In this document: piece by piece, positions 33,755-60,105 of the stretch | How positions within the stretch are numbered: the first letter of the stretch is position 1 | Layout: every line of letters begins with the position of its first letter | Assembly (NCBI GenBank): GCA_041551965.1 | Contig: JBFELU010000005.1 | Span: 188-64,187, forward strand | DNA length: 64,000 nt | Direction: 5' to 3' | DNA from: Acidimicrobiia bacterium | GTDB lineage: Bacteria; Actinomycetota; Acidimicrobiia; Spongiisociales; UBA11373 | The notes under the pieces: model-generated | What the model was told of the DNA's origin: nothing | What the model saw: the letters and a program-made list of their open reading frames with translations, nothing else | Databases searched by the model: none | Position numbers and translations under genes: made by a program

Positions 33755-34336
33755 TTACTTCAGGATCGCCTGGCCCACCGCCAGAGTGAAGGCGCTGTCC
33801 CCGAAGAGGAACACGCCGTTGTTTTCGGAGAGGCTGACCACCTTGAAGTTCTCCGCAAAGGTCTCGCCGACCGCCACGATGTAGGTCTCGCCGTCGACCG
33901 TCACCACGGCCTTTCTGGTGCCGTCCTCGTCGCGGATCTCGAGCAACACCACCCTGCGGGTCTCCGGCTCGAAGCCCTCGGTGGTCGTTGTCGCGCCGTC
34001 ACCGGCGGTGGTCGTGGTCGTGCCATCACCGGTCGTGGTCGTGGTGCCCCCGGTGGTCGTCGTGATCACACCGGTGGTCGTCGTCGTGCCTTCGATGAGC
34101 GGCTGGAACGGATCGCGAGGCGGGGCCACCTGGAATGCCGAGGTCAGCCCGAGCCCATCGTCCGCGGCCGCGAGCGGAGCGATCGTCCCCGGCGCGGCCG
34201 GGAGAGGCCCATCCAATCCCGGGCCGGCGGCCGCAAACACTCCGCTGGTGGCGATCAGCCAGACCGAGACGACGGCAGTGGCCACCAGGAGGATCGCCAC
34301 GACCGAGGCAGTCAGGCTGCGCGTTGCGCTTCTCAC
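33755..34336 (-). CDS. PilP-like type IV pilus inner-membrane assembly protein (membrane-anchored, Thr/Gly-rich linker)
   Basis: N-terminal TM anchor, PRDPFQPL motif (compare RSPFQPP in PilP), a long T/G-rich linker, and a C-terminal beta-rich domain (VVTVDGETYIVAVGETF...). Start overlaps the pilO stop; last gene of the pilMNO(P) unit. Confidence 0.55.
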   Translation of the reverse strand: MRSATRSLTASVVAILLVATAVVSVWLIATSGVFAAAGPGLDGPLPAAPGTIAPLAAADDGLGLTSAFQVAPPRDPFQPLIEGTTTTTGVITTTTGGTTTTTGDGTTTTTAGDGATTTTEGFEPETRRVVLLEIRDEDGTRKAVVTVDGETYIVAVGETFAENFKVVSLSENNGVFLFGDSAFTLAVGQAILK

Positions 34337-35133
34337 GGCAAGCCCCCGGACGCTTCACCGATGGTGGGGGGCGGGCCCTCCACCGGCTCGAACTCGATCC
34401 CCTGCCCGGGTTCGGCGGCATCGCCCTCGAGGTTGTCACCCTCCTGCTGCGCCCCACCTTCACCCTCGACCTCTTCCGCGGTGAGGATCGGCAGCAGCGG
34501 TGATCTCGTGTAGAGCTTGATGCTCAGGGCGATCGACAACGAATCCTCTTCGATCCACGGGACGGTGGTGGTCGTCGTGCTGGTCGACGTCGTGCTCGTG
34601 GTGTCCCCACCGGCGACCGTCGTCGTGGTCGTCGTCTCCTCCACCTCCCCGGCACCGGCGGAAGTGGCGGTGATGGCCACGCTGTCGACCACCACGATTC
34701 GCTCCATGTCGTCGAGCCCGAACAGGAACCCGAGGAGCTCGAAATACTCTCCGGTCATGGCGAGCGAGACGCCGATCTCATAGGCGTCGAGACCTTGCAC
34801 CGGAGCGGGCTCCGCCGGCGAGATCGCCTCGAGATTCACCCCCACCTCTTCGGCCAGCGCCGTCACCTCCTCGATGAAGACCGCCAGCTCGGCACGCTTG
34901 GGGATACCCGCCTCCAGCTTGCCGATGGCGGCGAGGTAGGCGACGTCGTTCTCCTGGACCGCCTGCAGCTGGGCGATGGCGGCCCGCAGCCGGTCGGCCT
35001 CGGCAACCGCGGCGTCACGATCATCCCTCAGCTCGGCGATCCGGGCGTTGCGGGGAGAAATGAGGAAGAACCACCAGGCCGCGGTGACCGCCAGGATGAC
35101 GAAGAGGACGAGGGCGGTGACCCGGCGGCTCAT
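34333..35133 (-). CDS. pilO: type IV pilus assembly protein PilO
   Basis: Single N-terminal TM helix, coiled-coil (AELRDDRDAAVAEADRLRAAIAQLQ) and PilO-like periplasmic domain, with a Thr-rich plus acidic C-terminal extension. ATGA coupling with pilN. Confidence 0.7.
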   Translation of the reverse strand: MSRRVTALVLFVILAVTAAWWFFLISPRNARIAELRDDRDAAVAEADRLRAAIAQLQAVQENDVAYLAAIGKLEAGIPKRAELAVFIEEVTALAEEVGVNLEAISPAEPAPVQGLDAYEIGVSLAMTGEYFELLGFLFGLDDMERIVVVDSVAITATSAGAGEVEETTTTTTVAGGDTTSTTSTSTTTTTVPWIEEDSLSIALSIKLYTRSPLLPILTAEEVEGEGGAQQEGDNLEGDAAEPGQGIEFEPVEGPPPTIGEASGGLP

Positions 35134-35753
35134 CCGGGAACCACCACCGGGATCCGCTCCTCGAGCCGGCTGGACACGGCCGCCTCGGTGAGCCCCGTCG
35201 ATGAATCGAAGTTGATCAACGTCTCACCGGTCACGGCCGAACCCGACTCGGAGGCATTCGTCACCCAGGTACCTGCGATGCCGGGGAATTGCTCTTCGTC
35301 GAGCGACCGAAGCCACGCCGACACGTCTCGGAAGTCGAAGCCTCTCCCCGCAACCGCCACCCTTCCCACGAGCCCGGGAGTGCCCGGCAACGACGTCCCC
35401 ACGAAGGAGTCCAGCCAGACGCGCTCGGGAATGAGGCGTCCGAAGTCGTTCAGCAGGCGACCCCACGCGACATCCTGGGCGAGCACCACCGAAGTGAGGA
35501 GCACCTGCTCGGCATACTGAGCCGCCAGGTCGTCGGCGGCGACGAGGGCATTGACCTCGGCGTCGAGTTCGGCGTTGATCGCTTGCTGTTCCTCGAGGGC
35601 TTCCTGGGTCGCGTCGACCCGGGTGTTCCACCACATCACACCCATCACGAGCGCGGCCACGTAGAGGAGTCCGAGCGCCACCCAGAAGCCCACCTTGCGG
35701 CGAGCCGCCAGCCTGCGAACGGCTTCGGGCGGAAGCAGGTTGATCGGTCTCAT
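35130..35753 (-). CDS. pilN: type IV pilus assembly protein PilN
   Basis: Signature N-terminus MRPINLLPPE (INLLP motif that binds PilM), a TM helix and coiled-coil. Confidence 0.8.
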   Translation of the reverse strand: MRPINLLPPEAVRRLAARRKVGFWVALGLLYVAALVMGVMWWNTRVDATQEALEEQQAINAELDAEVNALVAADDLAAQYAEQVLLTSVVLAQDVAWGRLLNDFGRLIPERVWLDSFVGTSLPGTPGLVGRVAVAGRGFDFRDVSAWLRSLDEEQFPGIAGTWVTNASESGSAVTGETLINFDSSTGLTEAAVSSRLEERIPVVVPG

Positions 35754-35759
35754 GGCAGA

Positions 35760-36863
35760 TCAGGCGACATGGGCGAATCGGGCGGTCGGGGGGACGACGA
35801 ACTTGCCCCACATGGCGAGCCCGACCGAGGCCGGGAGCACCGGCTGCAGGTCGAGCAATTGGCTCTCGGTCATCTGAAGGCGCCCCACTCCGACGTGATC
35901 GAGCACCCGCACCGGCTCGACCCGGGTTCCCAGGGCCCGAGCGATCCGGTTGGCGAGATGCGGCAGGCGGGCGCCGTTGCCGGAGACGACGAGGCGGCCG
36001 AGCGAGTGCTCGCCCGCCTGGGTCAGGTAGTAGTTGATGGATCCACGGATCTCTTCGATCAGCGAATCGGCCGTCCGGGTGAGGAGGCGACGCGCCACCG
36101 CCTGGTCGCCTTCGCCCTCCGGCATGCCGTCGGGAGCCACGCCGACGACGCGTTTCAACTCCTCAGCGTCCTCGTAGCCGAGTGACAGCCCGGCTCTGAG
36201 GTCCTCGGTGAACTGGTCCCCGCCGACGGGGAGGATGCGGACGAACCGGGTGATCCCGCCCCGCACGATGGCGATCTGCGACATGGAGATGCCGATGTCG
36301 AGAAGGGCCTGAGGGCCGTCGCCACCCAACATCAGATCTGCCCCGAAGGCGGCTCGCACCAGGCCGAACGCCTGGAGGTCGATCGACAGCACGTCCAGGC
36401 TGGCCGAGGAGGCGACGCCGAGCAACTCGTCGATCATCTCCCGCTGGGCGGCGACCACCAGGATGGAGAGCATCAGCTCCCCGTCGGGGGTGTTGAACTC
36501 CTCGAGCGGCACGTAGTCGAGGACGGCCTCTTCGACGGGAATCGGGATGGCGTCCTCCACCTGGAATGGGAGAGCCTCGACCATCTCGGCTTCCTCGAGG
36601 TGGGGCACATCGACTTGCCGGACTATCACCCGCTGGCTGGCGATGCCGATGACGACACGCTTGCGCGGCAGCTTGTTTCGCTTCCACAACGCCCCGACCG
36701 CCTCGGCGACGGCGCCGGGGTCGACGATCTCGCCGGCGACCACGGCTCCGGGCGGGAGCGGCATGTCGGCGAAGCGCCGCAGCAGCGGCGATGCCTTGGC
36801 GGTGTCGACGACCGCAGCGCGCACCGCGCTCGAACCGATGTCGAGACCAACCGCAACAGCCAT
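35760..36863 (-). CDS. pilM: type IV pilus assembly ATPase-like protein PilM (actin fold)
   Basis: MAVAVGLDIGSSAVRAAVV ASKHA/actin-like phosphate-1 motif; 367 aa; immediately upstream of pilN. Confidence 0.85.
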   Translation of the reverse strand: MAVAVGLDIGSSAVRAAVVDTAKASPLLRRFADMPLPPGAVVAGEIVDPGAVAEAVGALWKRNKLPRKRVVIGIASQRVIVRQVDVPHLEEAEMVEALPFQVEDAIPIPVEEAVLDYVPLEEFNTPDGELMLSILVVAAQREMIDELLGVASSASLDVLSIDLQAFGLVRAAFGADLMLGGDGPQALLDIGISMSQIAIVRGGITRFVRILPVGGDQFTEDLRAGLSLGYEDAEELKRVVGVAPDGMPEGEGDQAVARRLLTRTADSLIEEIRGSINYYLTQAGEHSLGRLVVSGNGARLPHLANRIARALGTRVEPVRVLDHVGVGRLQMTESQLLDLQPVLPASVGLAMWGKFVVPPTARFAHVA

Positions 36864-37038: not shown

Positions 37039-37803
37039 TCAGCCGAGATACCACTCGGCGATCCGCTCCCCCCAGGCCAGCCCGACGGCGGCCCCCGCCA
37101 CCATGGAGGGACCGAAGGCAATGGCATCCTTGCGACCCGCCCGCCGCAACGCCAAGAGGGCCAGGGCCACCAATCCCCCGATCGCAAAGGCCGCAAACCC
37201 GCCCACCAGGAGGGCCTCCCAAGACCGGTAGGCGAGGAAGGATCCCAGCAGGAAGGCCAGCTTGACATCCCCGAATCCGAAACCGCCGCGGGCGGCCAGA
37301 GCGACGAGGAAGAGGAGACCGAAATAACCGGCGCCCCCGCCGAGAGCTCGCAGCAACGCAGATGCATCGCCATCGAGCACGGCACCGCCGCTCAACAGCA
37401 CCCAGCCCACCATCGTCCCCGGCACCAGGATCCGGTTGGGGATCCGCTGCAGGTCAAGATCGGTGAGGGTCAAGGTCACGGCGACGCCGGTCGCCCACCA
37501 GTAGGCGGGCAAGACCCAGGCGGCGCCGATGAGCAGGCCCAAGAGCGCAAAGATGGCTCCGGTTCCGGCCTCGACGAGCGGATAGCGAATCGAGATGCCG
37601 GAGCCGCAATCCCGGCATCGTCCTCGCAGCAGCAGCCATCCCACCACCGGCACGTTGTCCCGGGGGCGGATTCGGTGACCGCAGGCCGGGCAAGCCGACG
37701 GCGGCCGCACCACCGAAAGGCCCTGCGGCACCCGATAGGCGACGACGTTGACGAAAGACCCCACCACGAGCCCGACGACGGCGCCGGCGAGAGGGATCAC
37801 CAC
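37039..37803 (-). CDS. pilD: prepilin peptidase (A24 family)
   Basis: N-terminal zinc-binding CxxC..CxxC (CPACGHRI...CRDCGSGI), polytopic membrane protein, catalytic Asp-containing motifs; 254 aa. Confidence 0.85.
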   Translation of the reverse strand: MVIPLAGAVVGLVVGSFVNVVAYRVPQGLSVVRPPSACPACGHRIRPRDNVPVVGWLLLRGRCRDCGSGISIRYPLVEAGTGAIFALLGLLIGAAWVLPAYWWATGVAVTLTLTDLDLQRIPNRILVPGTMVGWVLLSGGAVLDGDASALLRALGGGAGYFGLLFLVALAARGGFGFGDVKLAFLLGSFLAYRSWEALLVGGFAAFAIGGLVALALLALRRAGRKDAIAFGPSMVAGAAVGLAWGERIAEWYLG

Positions 37804-38246
37804 GCGACCCCGGCGCAGTTCTCCATCGCGATATCGAAACGGGAAGACCCGGCGCAGGTCGGACGTCCGGCGTCGTCGCCGTGGAGCACGAGGCGGAGGC
37901 CGAACCAGGTTCCCGTCACCGACCGAGCGTACAACAGCACCCGGCCCCGGTCACCGGTATCGACGTCGGCCACTTCGACGTAGACCCGGGAGTCGCTATC
38001 ACCGTCGAACTCCAACTCCGGCATCACCGACTTCAAGGCGGCGGCGGCGCCGACGAAGCCGCCCGCCTCCGGCTCCAGCGCCGCCTCGGCCTTGGCGGCG
38101 ATGGTGAGGGCGACCTTGACCCGCATGTCGTGGGCCTGCCGCCGGTTGGCCAGCAGGCTGGGAATCGCCATCGACACCAGCACCGCCAGGGCCACCAGCG
38201 TCACCAGCAGCTCCAGCACCGCAAAGCCCGTCTCTCGTTGCCGCAT
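37797..38246 (-). CDS. type IV pilin-like protein (second pilin)
   Basis: Class III signal peptide MRQRETG|FAVLELLV with Glu at +5; 149 aa; C-terminal Cys pair. Confidence 0.75.
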   Translation of the reverse strand: MRQRETGFAVLELLVTLVALAVLVSMAIPSLLANRRQAHDMRVKVALTIAAKAEAALEPEAGGFVGAAAALKSVMPELEFDGDSDSRVYVEVADVDTGDRGRVLLYARSVTGTWFGLRLVLHGDDAGRPTCAGSSRFDIAMENCAGVAW

Positions 38247-38315: not shown

Positions 38316-38783
38316 TTACCAGCCGGTCTGCACGAAGCCGGGGGGCGGGTTGTCGGTGGCGGGGCAGTCGCCGGCGAAGGCGCCGGTGCCGTAGTACGTG
38401 CCGTTGGCGGCGGACTCCCACACCGCGAAGGTGTTGCCCGAATCGGCGGTCCGGGCGATACACACCACGTCGGAGTCGGCGACGTTCAGGTCGATGTACA
38501 CGCCCAGCGCCGGATCGGCGTTGATCACGGCATTCGGCTCGAGCTCCAGGATCTCGAGGCCGTCCTCTGTGTAGTCGCCCTCTTCCAGCCAGTACGCCTT
38601 CTCGGAGAGGAGCACATTGCGCACCTCGCTCTGGGCGGCGCGGTCTTGAGCGGACTTCCTGAAGCCGAGGAACGAAGGAATGGCAATGGCGATGAGAACT
38701 GCAATGATCATCACCACGACCATCAACTCGATGAGCGTGAAGCCCTCGTCCTTGGCCAAGCCCTTGCGGATGGCCTTCATCAT
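38316..38783 (-). CDS. pilA: major type IVa pilin
   Basis: MMKAIRKGLAKDEG|FTLIELMVVVMIIAVLIAIAIP canonical T4a prepilin leader and alpha-1 helix; C-terminal Cys pair (C...C); ~155 aa. Strong GGAGG RBS 7 nt upstream of the ATG; TAA stop. Confidence 0.9.
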   Translation of the reverse strand: MMKAIRKGLAKDEGFTLIELMVVVMIIAVLIAIAIPSFLGFRKSAQDRAAQSEVRNVLLSEKAYWLEEGDYTEDGLEILELEPNAVINADPALGVYIDLNVADSDVVCIARTADSGNTFAVWESAANGTYYGTGAFAGDCPATDNPPPGFVQTGW

Positions 38784-38875: not shown

Positions 38876-40105
38876 TCAGCCGTTCTGGATGAGGTTGGCG
38901 ATGTTGAACATCGGCAGGTACAGGCAGATGAGGATGCCGCCGACCACCACGCCCATCACGATGATGAGGATCGGCTCGATGAGGCTGGTGAGCGCGCTGA
39001 TCGTGTCGTCGACCTCGCGGTCGTAGTAATCGGCGACCTTGCTCAACATGGTGTCCAGCGCCCCCGTTTCCTCGCCGACGGCCATCATCTGCGTCACCAT
39101 CGGCGGGAAGATCTCGTGGCGATGGAGCGGCTCGGCCAGGGACTCGCCCTTCTTCACCGAGGACTGGACGTCTCCGATGGCGTCGGCCAGGGTGGCGTTT
39201 CCCGCCGTCTCGGCGACGATGTCGAGGGCTTGGAGCACGGGCACGCCGGTGCGGCTCAGCACCGAGAAGGTCCGGGCGAAACGACTGATCGCCACCTTCT
39301 GCACCACCTTGCCGAAGATCGGGAATCGCAGCTTCAGTGCGTCCCATTGCCGGCTGCCGTTGGGCGTCTTCTTCCATTTGGTGAAGGCGAAGATCGAGCC
39401 ACCGAGCCCGCCCAGCCACAGCCACCACAGGCCGGTCACCAGGCCGGAGAAGTTGATGAGCGTCTGGGTCGGCAAGGGAAGCGCGCCGCCCAGATCGGAA
39501 TACATCTTCTCGAAGATCGGCACGACGAACACGAGCATGGCCATGACGATGAACACGATCAGATTGAGAACGACCACCGGGTAGGCCATTGCCGATTTGA
39601 TCTTCGAACGCAGCCGGGCCGCTGCCTCGAGGGTGTCGGCCAGCCGGGCCAGCGTCTCATCGAGCGCGCCGCCGACCTCGCCGGCCCGGACCATCGAGAC
39701 GTAGAGCTGCCCGAAGACCTTGGGGTGATCCTCGAGCGCGCCGGAGAGGCTGGTGCCCTGTTCGACCTTGAGCCGCACCTGCCCGAGCACGTCACGCAGA
39801 TAGGGGTTCTCGGCCTGATCCTCGAGAATGACCAGGGTCCGGATGAGGGAGAGGCCGGAGTTGACCATGGTGGCCATCTGGCGGCTCATCAGCGCCAGTT
39901 CCTTCGACTTCACCTTCTTGCCGAGCTTGGGGAGGGTGAGCTCCTTCTCGAAGGCCGAGACGCGCTTCTCAGAGACGTTGAGGGGTACCATCCCGCGTTC
40001 GCGCAGGCTGCGGGCCACGGCCGCCGAGGAGTCGGCCTCCAACTCGCCGCTGTGCACCCGCCCCGATTTGTCCTTGGCCCGATAGGCGAAGACCGCGGTG
40101 CTCAT
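38876..40105 (-). CDS. pilC: type IV pilus platform protein PilC (GspF family)
   Basis: Two GspF-type repeats and three TM segments; 409 aa; ATGA-coupled to pilT. Confidence 0.85.
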   Translation of the reverse strand: MSTAVFAYRAKDKSGRVHSGELEADSSAAVARSLRERGMVPLNVSEKRVSAFEKELTLPKLGKKVKSKELALMSRQMATMVNSGLSLIRTLVILEDQAENPYLRDVLGQVRLKVEQGTSLSGALEDHPKVFGQLYVSMVRAGEVGGALDETLARLADTLEAAARLRSKIKSAMAYPVVVLNLIVFIVMAMLVFVVPIFEKMYSDLGGALPLPTQTLINFSGLVTGLWWLWLGGLGGSIFAFTKWKKTPNGSRQWDALKLRFPIFGKVVQKVAISRFARTFSVLSRTGVPVLQALDIVAETAGNATLADAIGDVQSSVKKGESLAEPLHRHEIFPPMVTQMMAVGEETGALDTMLSKVADYYDREVDDTISALTSLIEPILIIVMGVVVGGILICLYLPMFNIANLIQNG

Positions 40106-41667
40106 GTCCGACCTCCGGTCAGGTTGAGGAACTCCTGCACGTCCTGGGCCCGTTCGACCGCTTCGGCGACCGTCACCCGTCCCGCCTTGACCAGGCCGGC
40201 GAGCGCCTGGTCCATCGTCTCCATCCCGTGCTTGCCGCCCGCCTGCATGAGCGAGTGGATCTGGTGGAGCTTCGACTCCCTGATGAGATTGCGGATCGCC
40301 GGCGTGGTCACCATCACCTCGACGGCGGCCACCCGGCCGGCCCCATCGGCGGTGGGCAGCAGTTGTTGGGCAACGACTCCCTGCAGCGACTCGGCCATCT
40401 GCACCCGGACCTGCTGCTGCTGCCCGGAGGGGAAGACGTCGATCACCCGCTCCACCGACTGGGCCGCGCTCTGGGTGTGGAGGGTGGCGAAGACCACGTG
40501 GCCGGTCTCGGCGGCGGTGAGCGCGGTCTCCATCGTCTCGAGATCACGGAGCTCACCGACGAGGATCACGTCGGGGTCTTGACGAAGCGCCTGCCGCAGA
40601 GCCCTGGCGAACGATTGGGTGTCCGCCCCCACTTCCCGCTGATTGATTATCGCCTTGTTGTGGCGGTGCATGAACTCGATGGGATCCTCGACCGTCATCA
40701 CATGAACGGCCCGGGTCTGGTTGATGAGGTTGATCAGCGACGCCAGCGTCGTCGATTTCCCGCTGCCGGTGGCGCCGGTCACCAAGATGAGACCACGCGT
40801 CAAGTTGGCGAACTCACGAACCGCCGGCGGCATCCCCAGTTCCTCGAGCGTCGGCACGTGGTCGGGGATGGACCGCATCACGGCCCCGATCGACCCCCGC
40901 TGGAAGAACACGTTGACACGGAAGCGTCCCCGCCCGGCGACGCTGTGGGAGAAGTCGAGCTCCTGCTCGTTCTCCAGCGCCTCCCGCTGATCGCCGGTGA
41001 GCATGGCGTACACCATCGAACGCAACGGCACCGGCTTCAGCTTCTCGTAGTTCTCCACCACGCGAAGGTCTCCGTGCACCCTGATCTGCGGCGGCGTTCC
41101 CACCGCCAGATGCAGGTCGGAGCCCCCGGCATCGACCAGCACGTCGAGGAGCTCGTTCACGTGAAACTCTGGCTCCTCGATTCCGATTCTCTCCGTCGAG
41201 GTGACCCTTGGGTCGGGGGAGGGACGCGCCCGCTCCCGGTAGGCGGTGTCGATCGCACCCACGAGGGCATCACGGTGGCCCAGCAGCGGCCGCACCCTGA
41301 ATCCCGTGGTCTTGTGGATCCGGGCCACCTTCTCCCGGTCGAACGGATCGGCCATCGCCACGGTGAGTTCGTCCTTGTGGAGACCGAGCGGGAGCGCCAC
41401 GAGATGAGCGGCGAGCTCACGATCGACCGCGTTGACGGCGGCGGAGTCGGGAGCGCCGTCGGTGGCGGGATCGTGGTAGCCCATCCCGAGCCGCTCGGCG
41501 GCAACGCGAAGGATCTCCTCCCGTTTCACCCGGCCCCGTTCCACCATCAGCTTGGCGAGAGGAGCGCCGGCGCGCTCCGAGGCGGCCAGATCGGCCTCGA
41601 GTTCCGCTTCGCTGATGAGGCCCCGATCGAGCAGGATCTGACCGAGCTGGCGCGAGACATCGTTCAT
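40102..41667 (-). CDS. pilT: PilT-type retraction ATPase with N-terminal MshEN/GspII domain
   Basis: PilT/PilU core (Walker A GATGSGKST, Asp box, His box, AIRNLIRE) preceded by a ~150-aa T2SSE_N-like domain (RQLGQILLDRGLISEAELEADL; MADPFD). Start chosen at MNDVSRQL (ATG 41665-41667), giving a 4-nt overlap with the pilB stop. Confidence 0.8.
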   Translation of the reverse strand: MNDVSRQLGQILLDRGLISEAELEADLAASERAGAPLAKLMVERGRVKREEILRVAAERLGMGYHDPATDGAPDSAAVNAVDRELAAHLVALPLGLHKDELTVAMADPFDREKVARIHKTTGFRVRPLLGHRDALVGAIDTAYRERARPSPDPRVTSTERIGIEEPEFHVNELLDVLVDAGGSDLHLAVGTPPQIRVHGDLRVVENYEKLKPVPLRSMVYAMLTGDQREALENEQELDFSHSVAGRGRFRVNVFFQRGSIGAVMRSIPDHVPTLEELGMPPAVREFANLTRGLILVTGATGSGKSTTLASLINLINQTRAVHVMTVEDPIEFMHRHNKAIINQREVGADTQSFARALRQALRQDPDVILVGELRDLETMETALTAAETGHVVFATLHTQSAAQSVERVIDVFPSGQQQQVRVQMAESLQGVVAQQLLPTADGAGRVAAVEVMVTTPAIRNLIRESKLHQIHSLMQAGGKHGMETMDQALAGLVKAGRVTVAEAVERAQDVQEFLNLTGGRT

Positions 41668-43337
41668 ACGACCACCCTCAACACTTCCTTGAACGTGGTG
41701 AGTCCGAGACGCACCTTCTCCATGCCGTCCTGACGCAGGGTCCTCATGCCCTGTTCGACGGCAACCGCCTTGATTTCGTCCGAGGGCCGGCGTTCGACAG
41801 CCAAACGCTGGATCTCCTCGGAGACCAGAAGCACTTCGTTGATGCTGAGCCGCCCCCGGTAGCCGGTTTCGGAGCAGGCCTTGCATCCGACCGCGTCGAA
41901 GACGGTGATCCGTTCATCCTCGGGAAGCCCCATCTCGTGGAGCATCTCTGGGGTGGCGTCCCGTTGCTGACGGCAGCGATCGCAGATACGTCGAGCCAGC
42001 CGTTGGGCCACGATCGAGTCGAGCGCCGATGACACCAGGTACGGTTCGACGCCCATGTCGATGAGCCGCCCCACGCTCGACGCGGCGTCATTGGTGTGCA
42101 ACGTCGACAGCACCAGGTGACCGGTGAGGGCCGCCTCCACGGCGATCTTGGCGGTCTCGGTGTCCCGGACCTCACCGATGAGCACGATGTCGGGATCGGA
42201 TCGAAGGATCGACTTGAGGGCGGTGGAGAACAACAGCCCCGCCTTGCGATGGACCTGCACCTGGATGACGCCGGGGAGCCGGTACTCCACGGGATCCTCG
42301 ACGGTGATGATGTTCCTGTCGGGCTGGTTGAGGACGTTCAGGGTCGAGTAGAGGGTGGTGGTCTTGCCCGACCCGGTCGGCCCGGTGACCAAGATGGCGC
42401 CGTAGGGCTTCGAGTAGGACGACTCGAAGCGCTCCAGCGACTGCGGCAGGAATCCGAGATCGGACAACTTGAGGATCGCGTCGTCCTTGTCGAGGATCCG
42501 GATCACGACCTTCTCGCCGTAGATGGTCGGCAACGTGGCGACGCGCAGATCGATTTGGCGACCCCCGACCCGGAGACTCACCCGACCGTCCTGAGGGACC
42601 CGTCGTTCGGCGATATTGAGCTCGGCCATGATCTTGAGGCGGCTCACCACCGCACCCGACACTGACCGCGGCGTCGTCATCACCTCTTTGAGGACGCCGT
42701 CGATCCGGAATCGCACCCTCAGATCGCGCTCGCCCGGCTCGACGTGGATATCGCTCGCCCGCTCATTCACGGCTCGGGTGACCAGCGTGTTGACGAGCCT
42801 GACGATTGGGGCTTCCTCGACCGCAGCTTCCAGGCCCTCGAGCGGGTCCTCCTCGGCATCCTCGGTGACCAGGTCGGCGAGATCGGCGACGGAGTTGTCG
42901 AGCGCGCCGACCCGCCTGATTGCATCCTCGATGTCCGACCGACTCGCCATCTTGGGCACCACCGTCTGTCCGGTGATGGCCCTGATGTCATCGACGATGA
43001 GGACGTTGCGGGGGTCGGCCATCGCCACGATCAGACGTTCGTCTTCGAAACCGACCGGGATGACCATGTAGCGCCTCGCGAGCGTTTCGGGGATCAACGC
43101 GGCGGCAGAGGGGTCGAGGGTCATCTCCGAGAGGTTCACGAATTCGATCCCCACGTGCCTGGCCAACACACGGGTGACGTCGTCCTCGGGGATGATCTCT
43201 TCCTCGATGAGGATCCGGGAGAGGGTTTCGCCGGTCTGAGCCTGCACCGCCTGGGCGCGCTCGAGATCGGCCTGGGTCACCAGACCCTCGTCGAGCAACA
43301 TCGTCCCGAACACGTCACCGCTTGGGGGCACGGACAC
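41664..43337 (-). CDS. pilB: type IV pilus assembly ATPase PilB (GspE family)
   Basis: N-terminal GspII/MshEN domain (FGTMLLDEGLVTQADLERAQAV; MADPRNV), Walker A GPTGSGKTT, tetracysteine zinc motif CDRC...CKAC. GTG start preceded by GAAGGAG. Confidence 0.9.
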   Translation of the reverse strand: MSVPPSGDVFGTMLLDEGLVTQADLERAQAVQAQTGETLSRILIEEEIIPEDDVTRVLARHVGIEFVNLSEMTLDPSAAALIPETLARRYMVIPVGFEDERLIVAMADPRNVLIVDDIRAITGQTVVPKMASRSDIEDAIRRVGALDNSVADLADLVTEDAEEDPLEGLEAAVEEAPIVRLVNTLVTRAVNERASDIHVEPGERDLRVRFRIDGVLKEVMTTPRSVSGAVVSRLKIMAELNIAERRVPQDGRVSLRVGGRQIDLRVATLPTIYGEKVVIRILDKDDAILKLSDLGFLPQSLERFESSYSKPYGAILVTGPTGSGKTTTLYSTLNVLNQPDRNIITVEDPVEYRLPGVIQVQVHRKAGLLFSTALKSILRSDPDIVLIGEVRDTETAKIAVEAALTGHLVLSTLHTNDAASSVGRLIDMGVEPYLVSSALDSIVAQRLARRICDRCRQQRDATPEMLHEMGLPEDERITVFDAVGCKACSETGYRGRLSINEVLLVSEEIQRLAVERRPSDEIKAVAVEQGMRTLRQDGMEKVRLGLTTFKEVLRVVV

Positions 43338-53398: not shown

Positions 53399-54793
53399 CT
53401 AGAGCTCGGCCCAGTCCACGACGATCGGGACGTCCTGAGTGGCTCGAAACGGGCTGGGCACCGGGCCACTGTTGTCCACGGTCGGGTTGCCGCTCCAGTC
53501 GGACTCGTGGACGTAGTCCTCGGCGCTGTCGCAGGAATCCCCGATGATGAAGGCTCCTTCGACGATGCTGCTGGCGCCGTTGATCTTGAGTTGCTCCTGC
53601 ACGGCCATGATGCCGGAGAGATCCGGGTTCCCCGAGATCTCGAGATCCCGGTCGACGCCCAGGAGCAAGTTGCGGGTGTTGGGATAGGGCACCATGGTCG
53701 GATTGCCGCTGATGCTCAGGTCGCCCCCGACCTTGTCCGGACAGGTACCCGACCCGGCGACCAACAAGGTGACCTGCCAAGGAGCACCCACCGATCCCGG
53801 GGAGGCCCCGATCGTCACCGATCCCTCGTGGAAGTAATAGACGCCGTCGAAGGGAATGTCGTTGTCGTAGACCCACTTCGCGCCAAGCCTCGAATCGCAG
53901 CATCCGTTGTACTTCCAGCTGCGGAACGGCGAGGTCTGCGTATCGGTGTCGAGGGTGGCTCCCGAACATGGCACGCTGGTCACCGTGCCGCCCATCGTCG
54001 GGTGAGCCGGGCCGGCACGCACCCGGCCATCGGGACACATGTCGTACTCACTGAGCGACCACAGCGATCGAATGTCGATGATCGGAAGCAGAACCGTCGC
54101 CTGCCCACCGGGCATTGCGCACCCGGGCGCCTGCGAGTAGGAACCGGAAACCGACACTGCGCCCGAGGCGCTGATGCAACTTTGGATGAAGCTGCTGCCT
54201 CCAATGGAGAGGTCGCCGTTTGCATGGATGCCGACCGAAGAGCCGCTGGCCACGGTGGGGTTTCCCTTGAAGGCGAGATTCCCGCCCGAAAGCACGGCGT
54301 AGGCGGCGTTCCACCCGCCCACCTCCGACGACAGCCCGATCCGCCCCCTCACCGCCCTGACCCGGCGGTCCGGCGCCGACCGGGTGGGGACGTAGCCGAC
54401 CGAGTACACGACCTCACTGTTGAACGGCCGGATGACCATGAACTCGCCGCCCGGCACCTGCCCCAGGTCGGAGGGCGAGCGAGCATCCGCGGCCGCCACC
54501 ACCCATTTCCGCTCGGTGTCCGAATCCGGGAAGGGGTGAGGCGCCGTCTCGCCCGTCGTGTACGACTCGTCGGCGTTGGCGAGATCCAGGCCGACGTCCA
54601 GGCCTGCTTCGGCAACCGCCAGGGTGAGCTCCCACTCCGAATCGACGTGGACACTCTGTGACTGGACCAGGGACCGAAACGCCACCACCGACGTGAGGAG
54701 AATGAGAGAGAAGCCGAGCAGCAGCACCGTGGCGACGGCGATCCCTCGCTCGTCCCGAATGACCCGCCGAATGGCCTTCCCCGAGGGTTTCAT
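53399..54793 (-). CDS. large Cys-rich membrane-anchored extracellular protein with TadG-like N-terminus (module B, gene 3)
   Basis: N-terminal RDERG plus hydrophobic anchor (IAVATVLLLGFSLILL) with no Glu at +5. Repeated SGNPT motifs and 10 Cys. Paralog of 56775-58151 (shared VGYVPTR, DxRSxWxxSEYDxCPxGRVxAGPxHPT, C-terminal VPxVxxWxEL). ATGA-coupled to the upstream gene. Confidence 0.6.
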   Translation of the reverse strand: MKPSGKAIRRVIRDERGIAVATVLLLGFSLILLTSVVAFRSLVQSQSVHVDSEWELTLAVAEAGLDVGLDLANADESYTTGETAPHPFPDSDTERKWVVAAADARSPSDLGQVPGGEFMVIRPFNSEVVYSVGYVPTRSAPDRRVRAVRGRIGLSSEVGGWNAAYAVLSGGNLAFKGNPTVASGSSVGIHANGDLSIGGSSFIQSCISASGAVSVSGSYSQAPGCAMPGGQATVLLPIIDIRSLWSLSEYDMCPDGRVRAGPAHPTMGGTVTSVPCSGATLDTDTQTSPFRSWKYNGCCDSRLGAKWVYDNDIPFDGVYYFHEGSVTIGASPGSVGAPWQVTLLVAGSGTCPDKVGGDLSISGNPTMVPYPNTRNLLLGVDRDLEISGNPDLSGIMAVQEQLKINGASSIVEGAFIIGDSCDSAEDYVHESDWSGNPTVDNSGPVPSPFRATQDVPIVVDWAEL

Positions 54794-55326
54794 GGCATGT
54801 TCCTGAGCGAGACGTCGAATTCCATGGATCGATCACCACCCCCGTCCACCGCCACGGGAGATTCCAGGCGGATGGTTGCCGTCCGAATGTCCTGAGGCGA
54901 CGACGAGCTGTACGTGAAACCCGAGGCCGCCGGATCGAGACCGCCGACCACCGTCACGCTGCCGCCGTTGTCGGTCAGGCGGGCCAGCGAGCCGTCATCG
55001 AGGAGCGCCCAGGACACTCGTTCACCGGTGTCCTGGATCCCATCCCAATCTGCGTCGAGCCACACGGTCATGGTGAGCGGCGACGCCACCACGAAACCCC
55101 GGGCCTCGCGAACATCCCGGGTGATCCTCTGCCTCACCTGCCGCAGCGTGACCAGCGCCGCGTCATCGGCTTCATGGAGGCGATCCACTCGGGTCACCCC
55201 GACGAAGAAGGTAGTGAGCATGGTGGCGATCACCGCCAGCCCGGCCAACGAGATCCCGAGCTCCACGAGGGTCATGCCGCCGTCTCCCGACGGCGCCAGC
55301 CTCCTCAGCGCGGCGATGCGCCTCAT
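54790..55326 (-). CDS. TadE-like pseudopilin / prepilin-type protein (module B, gene 2)
   Basis: Leader ...SGDGG|MTLVELGISLAGLAVIA with Glu at +5. Paralog of 58148-58705 (shared DVREARxF and terminal DVSLRNxP). ATG at 55324-55326 overlaps the upstream stop. Confidence 0.6.
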   Translation of the reverse strand: MRRIAALRRLAPSGDGGMTLVELGISLAGLAVIATMLTTFFVGVTRVDRLHEADDAALVTLRQVRQRITRDVREARGFVVASPLTMTVWLDADWDGIQDTGERVSWALLDDGSLARLTDNGGSVTVVGGLDPAASGFTYSSSSPQDIRTATIRLESPVAVDGGGDRSMEFDVSLRNMP

Positions 55327-56723
55327 GAGCACACCGACCCCACCGCTTCCGGCTGGAGACCTTGGAGGATCTGCGAGGCCGGCAGCAGGTTGGCCGGGTA
55401 TTCCACCCAGGAACCGCCGCTGAACTCGACTGTGCCGAGATTTCCCTCACCACCCGCGATGATCGCCCCATGCCAGGCCGCGCCCCCCGAGAGGAGGACT
55501 CCCCCGTATGGTGCGTAGGCCACCCCCTGGGCGTACCCCACGCTGCTCCCCGTCAATTTGAGCGCCGTGTCGGTGACACCGAACGAGATAGCTCCACCGG
55601 AGGTGGGGGACTCGGACCCGTAGTCGGTCACGATGTACTCGGTGCCGCCACTGAACTCGATCAGCACATCGGAGACGAAGAATGCGGCGTCGGTCGTGAC
55701 GGTCGGACCCCCCTGGAGCTTGAGTGAACCGGTGGCGTAGATTGGTCCGGAGCCGTTGATGGTGACGTTCCCTTCCACCACGAGGGAGCCTTCGATGTAG
55801 ATGGGGGCCGTGACGGTGGTGTCCTTGAACCGCTGATTGCCGTAGAGGATGGTTCCCGCCCTCGCCTGGTCCCGAAGATCGGCCCGCCAAACCTCGATCT
55901 CCTCAGTGGTGGGCAGGTCCACCGGTGTGCCGGCGTTCTGCTCCAAGATCCCGTGCACGTTGTCGGAATTGACGCTTGCGGTACCCCCGACGATCAGATT
56001 GCCGTCGACGGTGGCATCGTTGTTTCCGAAATTCCCGTTGGCGAGCACGTCGGCGGCATGGGTCCCCGAGGGCGTGCTGATGGTGTAGCCGGGATGCAGA
56101 TCGATATCTCCCGCCGCCATGATCGCAGCATCCGGGAAAGCCGATCCGGCAGTGGCGGAGGCGGTTCCGGCCGAGATGGTGGAGATCAAGGTTCCGGTGT
56201 GATAGGTGCGCGTTCCGACTTCCCCGTTCCACTCGACGAGGACGTACACCCTCCTCAGGGTCGCCGAAGGCTGAGTCACGTAGGTCCACGTCGTGAACTG
56301 GATGTCCTGGATGGTGGCGTCGACTCGGGGCGCAAGCACCCCACTCTCACAGGTGCGCAGGCTCTCATCGGCGGGAAGGCCGGTGGGTTCCGCCAATAGG
56401 ACCTCGCGGTCTGAATCGATGAGCGGCGCATCCGGGTCGATCTCGCTCAACGCCAGCCCCTCCCAACCGAGGCTTCGGGCGAGTTCGAGTCGTTCCAGAC
56501 CGAGACCGGTCGCTTCCTGGCGGAACCGGTTCTCCCTCGACCCACTCAGCGCACCACGGAGCGTGCCCGAGAAGGCGAGCACCAACATCATGGCCAGCAG
56601 CACCGCCACCGAAAGCTCCACGAGGCCGAACCCGGCCTCGGCGGTCGGCGGGACGGGGTGTCTTCGCACCCCCAACCGACGGCCGACGCCTGCTTCGTTG
56701 GGGACGCCATTGGGTCCGCTCAT
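55323..56723 (-). CDS. large prepilin-like protein with Gly/Val/Thr-rich repetitive C-terminal region (module B, gene 1)
   Basis: Prepilin motif AEAG|FGLVELSVAVLLAMMLV (Glu at +5), then a ~400-aa region of repeats (GSLVVEGNVTINGSGPIYATGSLKLQGG...). Paralog of 58702-60024. Start ambiguous among in-frame ATGs at 56771, 56741 and 56723; 56723 is preferred because GGTGGAAG lies upstream. Confidence 0.55.
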   Translation of the reverse strand: MSGPNGVPNEAGVGRRLGVRRHPVPPTAEAGFGLVELSVAVLLAMMLVLAFSGTLRGALSGSRENRFRQEATGLGLERLELARSLGWEGLALSEIDPDAPLIDSDREVLLAEPTGLPADESLRTCESGVLAPRVDATIQDIQFTTWTYVTQPSATLRRVYVLVEWNGEVGTRTYHTGTLISTISAGTASATAGSAFPDAAIMAAGDIDLHPGYTISTPSGTHAADVLANGNFGNNDATVDGNLIVGGTASVNSDNVHGILEQNAGTPVDLPTTEEIEVWRADLRDQARAGTILYGNQRFKDTTVTAPIYIEGSLVVEGNVTINGSGPIYATGSLKLQGGPTVTTDAAFFVSDVLIEFSGGTEYIVTDYGSESPTSGGAISFGVTDTALKLTGSSVGYAQGVAYAPYGGVLLSGGAAWHGAIIAGGEGNLGTVEFSGGSWVEYPANLLPASQILQGLQPEAVGSVCS

Positions 56724-56774
56724 GCTTCCACCGTCGACCATTATCTGTAGTGACTTGACTACTTTCCGCATTCT

Positions 56775-58151
56775 CTACAGTTCCCCCCAGGCCATCACCA
56801 CCGGGACCGTGTTGGACCCGGCGAACGGTGAGGCGATCGGCCCGCTGTTGCTGATGGTGGCGTTCCCCGAGATGTCGGTGACGTCGACCCAGTCGTTGGA
56901 GGAGTCGCAGGCCCCCTCCGCCAGCCAGGCGGTCTCCACCCCCTCCGGATGGCCGATGTTGCGAATCTGCTCGTGGACGGCGACGATCCCGGTGAGGTTG
57001 GGGCCGCCGGAGATCTCGAGATCCCGTCCGACGGCGATCAAGAGATTCTGGGCGTCGGGATCGGGCGCCATCGACGGGCTGCCGCTGATCTCCACGTCTC
57101 CACCGACGATCTCGGGGCAGGCGCCGATCCCCTCGGTGACGATCGTCACCTCCCAGGGATCGGCCGGCGACCCCGGGCTCGACGCCAGGTCGACCGACCC
57201 CTGATAGACGTAGTAGACGCCGTCGTAGGCGGCCTGACTCACGTAGCGCCAGTCGGCGCCCAGCTTGGCGTCGTAGCCGTCCCAGATCCATCCGTGGTAG
57301 GGGGTGAGGGCGGCGTCGACCTCCAGGGTCGACCCGGTGCACGGTGTGTTGCCCACGGTGTGACCGTGGGTGGGATGGGATGGCCCCGCCTTGACCCGCC
57401 CTCCGGGGCACAGGTCGTACTCACTGCGCACCCAGAACGAGCGCACGTCGACGACGGGGACCTCGACCGGAGCCTGGATGCCGGGGGCGCCACAGCCGGG
57501 GTCCTGGGCGATGGAACCGGTCACGTTGGCCCCGTCGGAGGCGCTGAGACACCCGTCCACGAACAAGTTGCCCCGTACGTCGAGGAACCCGTTGGCGTGC
57601 ACGCCGACGGTGGCCCCGCTGATGATGGTGGGGTTGCCGCCCATCTCCAGCTGGTCACCTGCGAGCAGCGCATAGCGGGCCAGCCAACTCCCGTTGATGG
57701 TGGCGTCGCCGATGCGGGCTCCCACCACCCGGACCCGGCGAGTCTCGGCGGCCCGGGTGGGCACGTACCCGACGGCGAAAACCATCTCGGTGTTGCTGGG
57801 CCGCACGACCACGTACTCCCCCAGCGGCGTCGTCCGCAGGTCGATCGACCCGCGAGCATCGGCGGCCGCCACCATCCAGACCCGGGCATCCTCGTTGCCG
57901 GCGAACGAGTCGGGAAGGACCTCGCCGGTCGTGAAAGCATCGTCCTCGGCGACCGCCACCAGGCCCTCGTCGAGGCCAGACTCGGCCACTTGGAGCGCCT
58001 GTTCCCACCCGGCGTCGGACAACGTGGTGTTCGACTGGCGCAGCGACCGCACCACCACCACCGACGAGAGCATCACGATCGACAAACCGAGGATGAGCAC
58101 CGCCGCCACCGCCAACCCCCGTTCGCCGCGCAGCAGGTGCCGCAGTCTCAT
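56775..58151 (-). CDS. large Cys-rich membrane-anchored extracellular protein with TadG-like N-terminus (module A, gene 3)
   Basis: Start MRLRHLLRGERGLAVAAVLILGLSIVML at ATG 58149-58151, overlapping the upstream stop. Paralog of 53399-54793; the track's longer N-terminal extension is rejected. Confidence 0.6.
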   Translation of the reverse strand: MRLRHLLRGERGLAVAAVLILGLSIVMLSSVVVVRSLRQSNTTLSDAGWEQALQVAESGLDEGLVAVAEDDAFTTGEVLPDSFAGNEDARVWMVAAADARGSIDLRTTPLGEYVVVRPSNTEMVFAVGYVPTRAAETRRVRVVGARIGDATINGSWLARYALLAGDQLEMGGNPTIISGATVGVHANGFLDVRGNLFVDGCLSASDGANVTGSIAQDPGCGAPGIQAPVEVPVVDVRSFWVRSEYDLCPGGRVKAGPSHPTHGHTVGNTPCTGSTLEVDAALTPYHGWIWDGYDAKLGADWRYVSQAAYDGVYYVYQGSVDLASSPGSPADPWEVTIVTEGIGACPEIVGGDVEISGSPSMAPDPDAQNLLIAVGRDLEISGGPNLTGIVAVHEQIRNIGHPEGVETAWLAEGACDSSNDWVDVTDISGNATISNSGPIASPFAGSNTVPVVMAWGEL

Positions 58152-58705
58152 GGGACGTTCCTCAGAGAGACCTCGGTATCGAGGGTTCGGGTCCCACCCA
58201 CCCCGGCGGCATCGTCGACCGCCGCCACCAGGTGGACGTCGATCATGGTGGCGTAATCGGGGTGGGTGCTGTCGTAGGAGAAGGCAGACAGGTCGACCAG
58301 CAACCCCTGGGCCTCGAGGCGGTTGGCACCGTCGGTCGACCGGAAGAGGGCGCCGTCGGTGTTGATCCCCCACGTGACCAACTCGCCGACATCGATCACG
58401 TCGTCCCATTGCTCGTCGATCCACACCGTGAATCCGAACCGACCGATGGCGGTGAAGCGGCGGGCCTCCCGCACATCCCGGCTCAATCGCGCTCTTGCGT
58501 CGCGAATCTGCTCGAGGGCCGTGTCGTCGGCCTTGTGGAGATCCTCGACGGCGGTGGCGCTCACGAAGAAGGACATCATGGTCATCGAGATGATCCCCAG
58601 TCCGACCATGGCGATGCCCAGCTCCACCACCGTCGCCCCGGTCTCGTCACGACGCCACCGGGCGCAGCACCGCCTCGCCGCCCGGAGAAGGACCCGCCCG
58701 ATCAT
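58148..58705 (-). CDS. TadE-like pseudopilin (module A, gene 2)
   Basis: Leader MIGRVLLRAARRCCARWRRDETG|ATVVELGIAMV matches the TadE/TadF RRDERG-AxxVEF-type N-terminus with Glu at +5. ATG at 58703-58705 overlaps the upstream stop. Confidence 0.6.
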   Translation of the reverse strand: MIGRVLLRAARRCCARWRRDETGATVVELGIAMVGLGIISMTMMSFFVSATAVEDLHKADDTALEQIRDARARLSRDVREARRFTAIGRFGFTVWIDEQWDDVIDVGELVTWGINTDGALFRSTDGANRLEAQGLLVDLSAFSYDSTHPDYATMIDVHLVAAVDDAAGVGGTRTLDTEVSLRNVP

Positions 58706-60024
58706 CCGCAGGGGCTCTCCGAAACGGTGGGCCGCAGCCCGTTGAACAGCGTGGTGGTGGGGACGAGGTTGGCCGGGTAGTCGACCCAGGCACCGCCCCC
58801 CATGTCGACGTCGCCGCTTCCGTCCCCCATGGCGACGAGGGCCCCGTGCCACGGCAGGGTGCCGGTGAGTTGGATGCCGCCGTAGGGGGCGAAGGCGACG
58901 CCCTGCGCGGTGGCCGGCGCTCCTCCCACGAGCTTGATGGCGATGTTGGACGAGCTCAACGAGATCACCCCGGCAGACCCGAGCTCACCGACGTGGAGTT
59001 GGCTCCCCGACCGGAAGTCGACCTGTCCTTCGGCGACCAGGCGGGCCGCCGCCGACGTCACCGAGGCTCCGGTCTCGAGCACGATCGAACCGGTGGCGTA
59101 GAGGGGACCGGACCCCGCGATCGTGACGTTCCCGGCAAAGGCCACGCTCCCGTCGACGTAGAGCGGGGCGGTGACGGTCGTCTCGGTGAAGACCTGATTC
59201 CCGATCAGCGAAGCGCCGGCCTGAGCGTCGGCGACCATCCCCGCCTCCCAGGCGCTCAGGGTCGCCTGATCCGGGACGTTGACCGGTGACCCGGCGTTCT
59301 GCTCGATGTTTCCATGGACGTTGGCGGGGTTGACCGTCACCGTCCCCCCGGCCACGATGCTCCCGTCGACCACCGCATCGAGGTTGGAGAAGCTGGCGTT
59401 GAGCCAGATCGAGGCGCTGTGGGCCGTGGTCGGGTTGCTCGAGGTATAACCCGGGTACAAAGCCACGTTGCCGGTGGCCAGGATCGCCCCTTCGGGGAAT
59501 ATCGGCTGTTCGATCGCTTCGGCGCCGCGAGCCGAGACGATCGAGACCAGGGAATCGGACCGGTAGTGATAGGAGCTCCCCTCGATCTCCCACGCCACCA
59601 GCACGTAGACCCGGCGAAGGGAGTCGCTCACGTGGGTGACGTAGGTCCTCGTGGTGAAGGGAACCTGCCCGACCGTCTCCGTGGTGACCGGGGCCAGGAT
59701 CCCCGTCGGGCACTCGAGCACCGCCTCGTCCTCGTCCAGGCCGCTCACCGAAGCCGGGAGCACCCCGTCGGTGATCCACGGGTCCTGCGGATCGATGCCC
59801 GCCATCGCCAGTTGATCCCACTCCAGGCTCCGCGCATGCTCGAACGTCGCCATGGCAACCGCAGTCGCCTCTTGACGGAATCGATTCATGCGAGAGCCGG
59901 TGAGGGCGCTCCGGAGTGAGCTGCTGGCGGCGACCATGATGATCACCGCGATCACCATGGCCACGCTCAGCTCGACCAGCGTGAAGCCCTCTTCACCCGA
60001 CCGGCGGGTTGCCGCGTTGAACAC
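58702..60024 (-). CDS. large prepilin-like protein with Gly/Val/Thr-rich repetitive C-terminal region (module A, gene 1)
   Basis: MFNAATRRSGEEG|FTLVELSVAMVIAVIIMV canonical prepilin cleavage/methylation motif; repeats (GSVAFAGNVTIAGSGPLYATGSIVLETG...); 440 aa. GTG start preceded by AGGGGG. Confidence 0.65.
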   Translation of the reverse strand: MFNAATRRSGEEGFTLVELSVAMVIAVIIMVAASSSLRSALTGSRMNRFRQEATAVAMATFEHARSLEWDQLAMAGIDPQDPWITDGVLPASVSGLDEDEAVLECPTGILAPVTTETVGQVPFTTRTYVTHVSDSLRRVYVLVAWEIEGSSYHYRSDSLVSIVSARGAEAIEQPIFPEGAILATGNVALYPGYTSSNPTTAHSASIWLNASFSNLDAVVDGSIVAGGTVTVNPANVHGNIEQNAGSPVNVPDQATLSAWEAGMVADAQAGASLIGNQVFTETTVTAPLYVDGSVAFAGNVTIAGSGPLYATGSIVLETGASVTSAAARLVAEGQVDFRSGSQLHVGELGSAGVISLSSSNIAIKLVGGAPATAQGVAFAPYGGIQLTGTLPWHGALVAMGDGSGDVDMGGGAWVDYPANLVPTTTLFNGLRPTVSESPCG

Positions 60025-60105
60025 CAGCCCCCTAGGGGTCGACCCCAGGAGTATCGACCACTCTTCGTAGTCTCTTGAGCCACCTGTAGTGGCGATCGAG
60101 ACGGA

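Follow-up and report, generated by a model that had tools for sequence, protein, structure and literature searches.

The gene order gspI-gspJ-gspK, or pilV-pilW-pilX, is canonical for the minor pilins of type II secretion systems (T2SS) and type IVa pili (T4aP). Tip complexes are capped by a minor pilin of the PilX/GspK/ComZ type, the signature of which is an N-terminus lacking the glutamate at position 5 (Glu5) (PMC10191384). In Thermus thermophilus the competence-associated tip pilins are ComZ and PilA2 (PDB 6qvi); ComZ, a pilin resembling GspK into which an ice-binding-protein-like solenoid is inserted, escapes recognition by PilFind and was proposed to form the cap or tip of the pilus (PMC6561018). 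In cyanobacteria two core sets of minor pilins, each with a beta-solenoid PilX, prime a competence pilus and a motility/adhesion pilus, respectively (10.64898/2026.02.12.705559), and in the monoderm Streptococcus sanguinis three-pilin sets replace HIJK (PMC10191384). In the 64,000-nucleotide stretch of contig JBFELU010000005.1 analysed here (positions 188 to 64,187, the window), which belongs to the metagenome-assembled genome (MAG) of an Acidimicrobiia bacterium, six open reading frames (ORFs) on the minus strand between rel and an MBL hydrolase gene make up two tandem three-gene units. Each of these trios, A and B, is very probably a core minor-pilin set of the GspI-GspJ-GspK/PilV-PilW-PilX type, serving the type IVa pilus encoded at 34-43 kb of the window. 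The six genes are the following:

A1: 58702-60024, minus strand; 440 aa, bimodular prepilin
A2: 58148-58705, minus strand; about 185 aa, small prepilin with Glu5, in the J position
A3: 56775-58151, minus strand; 458 aa, Glu5-less minor pilin of ComZ/PilX/GspK type with a predicted beta-solenoid inserted in the pilin fold
B1: 55323-56723 or 56771, minus strand; 466 aa from the ATG at 56723 (482 aa from 56771), paralog of A1
B2: 54790-55326 or 55332, minus strand; about 178 aa, paralog of A2
B3: 53399-54793, minus strand; 464 aa, paralog of A3, no Glu5

The trio shares the gene order of GspI-GspJ-GspK and PilV-PilW-PilX, an I-like gene being followed by a small pilin and a K-like gene, and as in GspK and PilX the third protein lacks Glu5 and is the largest subunit owing to an inserted domain. 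This insert is alpha-helical in GspK, whereas in gene 3 it is predicted to be a beta-solenoid, and the cassette has no H subunit. In structural alignments gene 3 is only 13-14% identical to ComZ of Thermus; unlike there, the host is here actinomycetotal and presumably monoderm, no secretin gene was seen in the window, the partner I-type pilin (gene 1) would bear a solenoid of its own and the set is tandemly duplicated. The FimT-PilW-PilV-PilX sets of cyanobacteria (Com and EPS types) resemble the present locus in having two paralogous sets for one T4aP machine and no PilY1, and also in the proposed role as tip plug or adhesin priming distinct filaments. They differ in that the trio has three genes per set without a FimT/GspH-type gene in the cassette, in that the PilV-like subunit is here itself bimodular, and in that the two sets are adjacent and, by the neighbour-joining tree, arose from duplication within the lineage, unlike the deeply split cyanobacterial subfamilies. 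The modular pilins PilA-PilB-PilC of S. sanguinis carry grafted von Willebrand factor A and lectin modules (PMC10191384, PMC8179133) in place of the ice-binding-protein-like solenoids predicted for the trio, and no sequence homology was detected between the two sets. Multi-copy cassettes of pilin-like genes are also formed by the Verru_Chthon proteins A-D (TIGR02596-TIGR02600) and the Hps pseudopilins, but these have four genes and occur in other phyla, and the matches of some gene-2 family members to them are weak and far below the cut-offs. Thus the trio is a known kind of system, a core minor-pilin set with a ComZ-type cap, and not a new machine or a hybrid of Tad and T4a pili. The peculiarities of the locus are the solenoid on the I-type subunit, the EF-hand-like loop in gene 2, the position beside rel and the variable two-cassette slot. 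An earlier reading made from the DNA letters only (the sequence-only reading) had regarded the combination as not belonging to a described system; this does not hold, since both tip pilins of the PilX/ComZ type with a beta-solenoid and core sets of minor pilins in duplicate are on record (PMC6561018; bioRxiv 10.64898/2026.02.12.705559).

The two tandem copies noticed in that reading were confirmed, all six ORFs lying on the minus strand where it had placed them, and its ATGA coupling was found as stop/start overlaps at all four within-unit junctions (A1/A2, A2/A3, B1/B2 and B2/B3). Its size range of 464-549 aa for gene 3 is correct for B3; the start of A3, however, is the ATG at 58151, which matches B3 and all homologs, so that A3 has 458 residues and 549 aa is only the maximal ORF. 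The ortholog of B1 in the related locus L012 has 466 aa, and a database protein of 178 aa (P0087) is 99% identical to B2. The distance between the rel stop codon and the A1 start is only about 80 nt (60025-60105). A scan for promoters and terminators was negative on the minus strand, and from the sequence read-through from rel, which encodes the (p)ppGpp synthetase, might account for transcription of the cassettes. The third-position GC of copy B (53399-56771) is 0.80-0.85, lower than the 0.86-0.90 of copy A (56775-60024) and the flanking housekeeping genes.

A prepilin is expected to begin with a short, basic leader whose last residue is Gly; some 20 hydrophobic residues come next, with Glu at +5. 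Such leaders, with Glu5 and the hydrophobic helix, are present in A1 (MFNAATRRSGEEG/FTLVEL, the slash marking the predicted cleavage site), B1 (...PTAEAG/FGLVEL), A2 (...RRDETG/ATVVEL) and B2 (...SGDGG/MTLVEL). In A3 (MRLRHLLRGERG/LAVAAV, thus ERG/LAVAAV) and B3 (...RDERG/IAVATV) the Gly and the hydrophobic helix are present and Glu5 is missing. The N-terminal motifs, including this missing residue, are thus as the sequence-only reading had described them. In a motif scan of every ORF of the window class III signal sequences appeared at N-termini in two places only, in the six trio proteins and in the two pilins of the T4aP locus, and all six trio proteins are presumed to be processed by the window's prepilin peptidase, PilD. 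The prepilin nature proposed for genes 1 and 2 was also borne out by family models. A1 exceeds the cut-offs of both N_methyl (PF07963; 25.2 bits, cut-off 21.2) and TIGR02532 (22.1 bits, cut-off 16.3), B1, 47% identical to it, gives sub-threshold matches only, and N_methyl is matched by 57 of the 104 gene-2 family members scanned.

Neither A3 nor B3 has a direct match in Pfam or NCBIfam. Among 66 relatives of gene 3, which match seven Pfam families overall, PilX_N (PF14341) was found in 16 and DUF7305 in nine, and one remote homolog is named 'PilX N-terminal domain-containing pilus assembly protein'. When the actinomycetotal gene-3 family was compared with PilX_N/DUF7305 proteins by hhalign, the two aligned over their full length (406 columns) with a probability of 100% and E 4e-62. 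Glu5 was missing in every gene-3 homolog inspected in the loci of relatives. Since the Glu5-less N-terminus with ERG and a hydrophobic stretch is the signature of the PilX/GspK/ComZ-type cap, it is expected for a K-type subunit and not for TadG. The AlphaFold2 model of B3 (predicted local distance difference test score, pLDDT, 93.5; predicted template modelling score 0.77) consists of an N-terminal helix of 60 residues (15-74), strands at 111-163, an extended solenoid and, at the end, a long strand (445-463); the pilin fold is interrupted by a large extra domain, as in ComZ, where the beta-solenoid lies between the penultimate and the last strands. A Foldseek search with the B3 model gave ComZ as the sole significant match (E 6.8e-9), with 13-14% identity in the structural alignments. 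PDB sequence searches with the profiles of all three trio families returned no meaningful relatives, the deeper profile of gene 2 giving pilin N-termini only. By profile and model, gene 3 is homologous to the PilX_N/ComZ-type proteins and appears to encode a ComZ/GspK-like capping minor pilin. The protein has been called Cys-rich, which is a mild overstatement; it contains 6 to 8 Cys, of which six are conserved.

In the model of A1 (pLDDT 84.9) a helix (16-66) and a four-stranded sheet (strands at 113-161) form a pilin domain, which is followed by a short linker of low confidence and then by a C-terminal beta-solenoid at about 180-420. The N-terminal part (about 14-165) is accordingly modelled as a GspI/PilV-like domain with the small I-type pilin fold, and the C-terminal module as a beta-solenoid of the ice-binding-protein/DUF7305 fold; a beta-solenoid had been guessed from the Gly/Val/Thr-rich repetitive C-terminus, and the model agrees with this. 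A weak DUF7305 match was found by Pfam in both A1 and B1, and members of the gene-1 family show weak NCBIfam matches to Hps pseudopilin and Gsp models. Assignment to the ice-binding proteins (DUF3494/IBP-1) was rejected, neither family membership nor function having been found, and the likeness is a mere resemblance of fold; Pfam matches to bactofilin and the YdcK solenoid were taken as generic beta-helix cross-matches. Exchange of the C-terminal module is typical of modular pilins, and in three related loci (L007, L009 and L010) that of gene 1 is swapped for unrelated sequence. Gene 1 holds exactly two Cys, invariant in 19 homologs, of which C105 of A1 is in the pilin domain and C439 is two residues from the C-terminus. 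To judge from these positions, a C105-C439 disulfide could anchor the end of the solenoid on the pilin domain.

The small proteins A2 and B2 gave no significant direct match in Pfam or NCBIfam. An exhaustive profile search collected 490 clusters of the gene-2 family at E<=0.001, mostly proteins of 170-190 aa. The 104 members scanned match six Pfam families, TadE and Tad not being among them, and in NCBIfam HpsC (38 members), Verru_Chthon protein C (28), ComGE (20) and GspJ (18; TIGR01711, best E 1.5e-6), as well as, marginally and in one member of the 104, a TadE-like model. These NCBIfam matches cover mostly the N-terminal helix and are far below the family cut-offs, and the profile of gene 2 matches in the PDB only the N-termini of type IV pilins. 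The family matches point to a minor pilin of the T4a/T2SS type with Glu5, not a TadE/TadF pseudopilin, and since the gene sits between the I-like and the K-like genes, gene order together with the HMM (hidden Markov model) matches indicates that it is probably GspJ-like. Gene 2 has an EF-hand-like 12-residue loop within the motif W-x-D-x-D-x-D-G-x-x-D-x-G-E (residues 91-104 of B2; also in A2), the loop of B2 being D93-A-D-W-D-G-I-Q-D-T-G-E104. Across the 104 family members W91, D93, E104 and W108 are near-invariant, and the family profile cross-matches SdrD_B repeats, which bind Ca2+ in giant surface proteins. This pattern suggests that the minor pilin in the J position has a calcium site.

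The gene-3 alignment was scanned against one genome per species, which gave 11 loci, all from Actinomycetota or Acidimicrobiia MAGs, and the three-gene architecture is kept in all of them. In L009 the gene order is pilC, pilA, gene 1, gene 2, gene 3, pilD, pilM, pilN, pilO, and in L007 it is pilB, pilT-like ATPase, pilC, three pilA, gene 1, gene 2, two gene 3, pilM, pilN. Because it is embedded in this way, the trio is an integral part of T4aP operons in these more distant Actinomycetota MAGs, at the usual position of minor pilins. In the closest Acidimicrobiia (L001-L006 and L012) the trio stands between rel and MBL-hisS-aspS with a varying copy number; it has thus been relocated to the rel-MBL slot in this class. 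The cassette is single in L002 and L006 and double in the window, L001, L004, L005 and L012. L001 (3490-5827) and L004 (6340-10281) each have a second cassette that has diverged deeply, and that of L005 (11176-14712) is rearranged and contains a hybrid ORF of about 725-820 aa made of a gene-3-like N-terminus and a gene-1-like DUF7305 solenoid. It was observed in related Acidimicrobiia MAGs that the slot often holds a second trio of different origin; that of L004 encodes two prepilins, one of 568 aa with a Thr-rich linker and one of 237 aa, as well as a 529-aa protein without Glu5. L007, an Actinomycetes MAG, has three near-identical tandem major-pilin genes upstream of its trio (4542-6205) and two tandem cap (gene-3) paralogs, which is another route to diversification of tip and filament. 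A Methylomirabilota contig carries a three-gene set of two N_methyl pilins and a PilX_N/DUF7305 protein, and no pil genes were among the genes called in this 17-kb locus.

The paralogs of the window are 47% (gene 1, full length, E 2e-137), 43% (gene 2, E 1e-40) and 51% (gene 3, E 2e-162) identical in amino acids, which is far beyond chance, and when the copies were compared at the DNA level gene 3 alone still aligned well, with about 64% identity. Since this identity is so low, the duplication is not only real but old, and the sequence-only reading, which had estimated 40-50% by eye and a duplication that was not recent, was right. Recent duplication or gene conversion is ruled out by the same value. 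The two-cassette arrangement is conserved in L012 with 68-80% amino acid identity. Copy B is not a pseudogenised duplicate, as its three ORFs are intact, overlap-coupled and kept in L012. In a neighbour-joining tree (no bootstrap) B3 of the window and its L012 ortholog fall inside the A-type clade, in agreement with a tandem duplication that took place within the lineage.

Outside the T4aP locus at about 34.3-43.3 kb, some 15 kb from the trios, the window encodes no prepilin peptidase and no PilB or PilT ATPase, as had been stated before. The genes of this locus are the following:

pilB: 41664-43337, minus strand; extension ATPase, presumed assembly motor (T2SSE, E 1e-140; TIGR02538, 632 bits, cut-off 675.65, E 9e-190)
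pilT-family gene: 40102-41661 (start approximate), minus strand; retraction ATPase (TIGR01420, 486.8 bits, cut-off 319, residues 168-509; Pfam MshEN)
pilC: 38876-40105, minus strand; platform protein (T2SSF, E 5e-69, two domains)
major pilin: 38316-38783, minus strand; ...KDEG/FTLIELMVVV
second pilin: 37797-38246, minus strand; 149 aa, RETG/FAVLELLV, weak GspG N-terminal match only
pilD: 37039-37803, minus strand; prepilin peptidase (A24_N_bact, E 5e-34, and Peptidase_A24)
pilM-pilN-pilO: 34333-36863, minus strand; alignment subcomplex (Pfam PilM_2, PilN, PilO)

Apart from the major pilin and the one extra pilin no minor-pilin set is present in the T4aP locus of the window, so the two trios are the obvious candidates to supply one. 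The second pilin, whose gene separates that of the major pilin from pilD, could supply the H/FimT-type subunit that is otherwise missing, or it could be an auxiliary pilin. The PilT-family ATPase is extended at its N-terminus by about 165 aa, which include an MshEN-like motif for c-di-GMP binding (NF053729, 36 bits, cut-off 38), and the motif is also present in PilB. An MshEN domain on PilT looks unusual.

We infer complex formation, the location at the tip, a ligand and the specialisation of the two copies as follows. PilD would cleave the leaders after the conserved Gly. Gene 3, Glu5-less and ComZ/GspK-like, would cap the filament, and gene 2 in the J position and the I-like gene 1 would dock under it through their N-terminal helices, forming a priming complex onto which the major pilin would polymerise from below. 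In this way the two beta-solenoids, one inserted in gene 3 and the other appended to gene 1, would be displayed at the tip of the pilus, where they may act as a plug, an adhesin or a receptor that recognises a surface, a polysaccharide or DNA. With two diverged cassettes the single machine would most likely have two alternative tips, and its pili would differ in binding specificity or in function. By analogy with the described sets, two alternative tip/priming complexes for one retractile T4aP machine are the most likely arrangement.

Several points weigh against the assignment of the trios to this pilus. In this genome they are 15 kb from the pil genes and adjoin rel, so that co-regulation with the pilus is presumptive at most. 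B2, A3 and B3 match no Pfam or NCBIfam model themselves and are connected to known families at the profile or structure level only, and the J identity of gene 2 leans on gene order and on weak, mostly N-terminal HMM matches. A fourth subunit of the GspH/FimT type was not identified, unless the second pilin at 37797-38246 fills this role, and further minor-pilin sets may be present elsewhere in the genome. The organism is an uncultured Acidimicrobiia bacterium, represented by a MAG.

The separation from the pil genes in this genome is also what would favour a Tad-related or hybrid surface-fibre or adhesin system standing by itself, independently of the T4aP, and the ERG and hydrophobic N-terminus is superficially like that of TadG or TadE. 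The sequence-only reading had made such assignments (TadE/TadF for gene 2, TadG for gene 3, hence a module mixing T4a and Tad types) and had left open an independent fibre system beside minor pilins or tip adhesins for the T4P. However, TadE (PF07811) and Tad (PF13400) were matched at E<=1 by none of the six proteins, nor were they among the Pfam families of the 66 gene-3 and 104 gene-2 relatives. Gene 3 aligns with PilX_N/DUF7305 and its model folds like ComZ, more than half of the gene-2 relatives scanned match N_methyl, and the window's PilD is of the PilD/GspO type with an A24 N-terminal domain. The trios are without an ATPase, platform or peptidase of their own, and in other Actinomycetota they stand inside T4aP operons (L007 and L009), their neighbours in relatives being pilB, pilC, pilD and pilMNO. 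The Tad assignments are therefore abandoned, a self-standing system is scarcely credible, and of the two options it is that of minor pilins or tip adhesins which is supported. The same embedding, here in operons of pilB, pilC, pilA and pilMNO, speaks against a T2SS-like or Hps-like pseudopilus secreting polysaccharide or protein in place of a set on an extended pilus. The I-J-K architecture is common to T2SS, and weak NCBIfam matches to HpsB, HpsC, GspH, GspI and GspJ were obtained with members of the gene-1 and gene-2 families; these HMM matches nevertheless score far under the family cut-offs and mostly cover the N-terminal helix common to such proteins. T2SS-specific genes (GspC, GspL, GspM, secretin) are not found in the window, a second PilB-like ATPase gene stands beside pilB in L007, and a PilT-family ATPase passing its threshold is encoded in the window's locus. 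A secretion pseudopilus is thus highly improbable.

A role mainly in natural transformation, with one or both trios serving as a DNA receptor, in the manner of ComZ/PilA2, on a short pilus or pseudopilus for competence, has more in its favour, the best structural match of gene 3 being ComZ, a DNA-binding competence pilin (PMC6561018), and one of the two cyanobacterial minor-pilin sets being competence-specific (10.64898/2026.02.12.705559). The identity to ComZ is, however, only 13-14% in the structural alignments, the ice-binding-protein-like solenoid fold is generic to adhesins, and comEA, comEC and dprA were not noticed around the trios, although no search aimed at them was made, so that we regard this role as unlikely; moreover, it would be a sub-case of the minor-pilin explanation and not a true alternative to it. 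Within the reading of the trios as core minor-pilin sets of the T4aP, a further proposal can be made, which is tentative and on balance doubtful. It is that the tip is 'two-headed', with the solenoids of the I-type and the K-type subunits and a calcium-binding J-type joint, that fast-diversifying duplicated cassettes yield distinct pili, e.g. for DNA uptake and adhesion, and that read-through from rel possibly couples them to the stringent response. If true, this would amount to a new subunit architecture and to the equivalent, in a monoderm, of the split between Com and EPS pili in cyanobacteria.

To our knowledge, the type IVa pili of Actinomycetota are almost unstudied, and minor pilins of the trio type are annotated there as 'hypothetical'. 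Recognition of the I-J-K order with a ComZ-like cap would allow a family that is widespread in Actinomycetota MAGs to be annotated by rule, and it would add a third phylum to Thermus and cyanobacteria as bearers of the PilX/ComZ tip architecture with a beta-solenoid. The rel-MBL interval is a variable chromosomal slot in which tip cassettes are duplicated and swapped, and it is natural to look among these cassettes for candidates that determine adhesion specificity or DNA uptake in the abundant but uncultured Acidimicrobiia.

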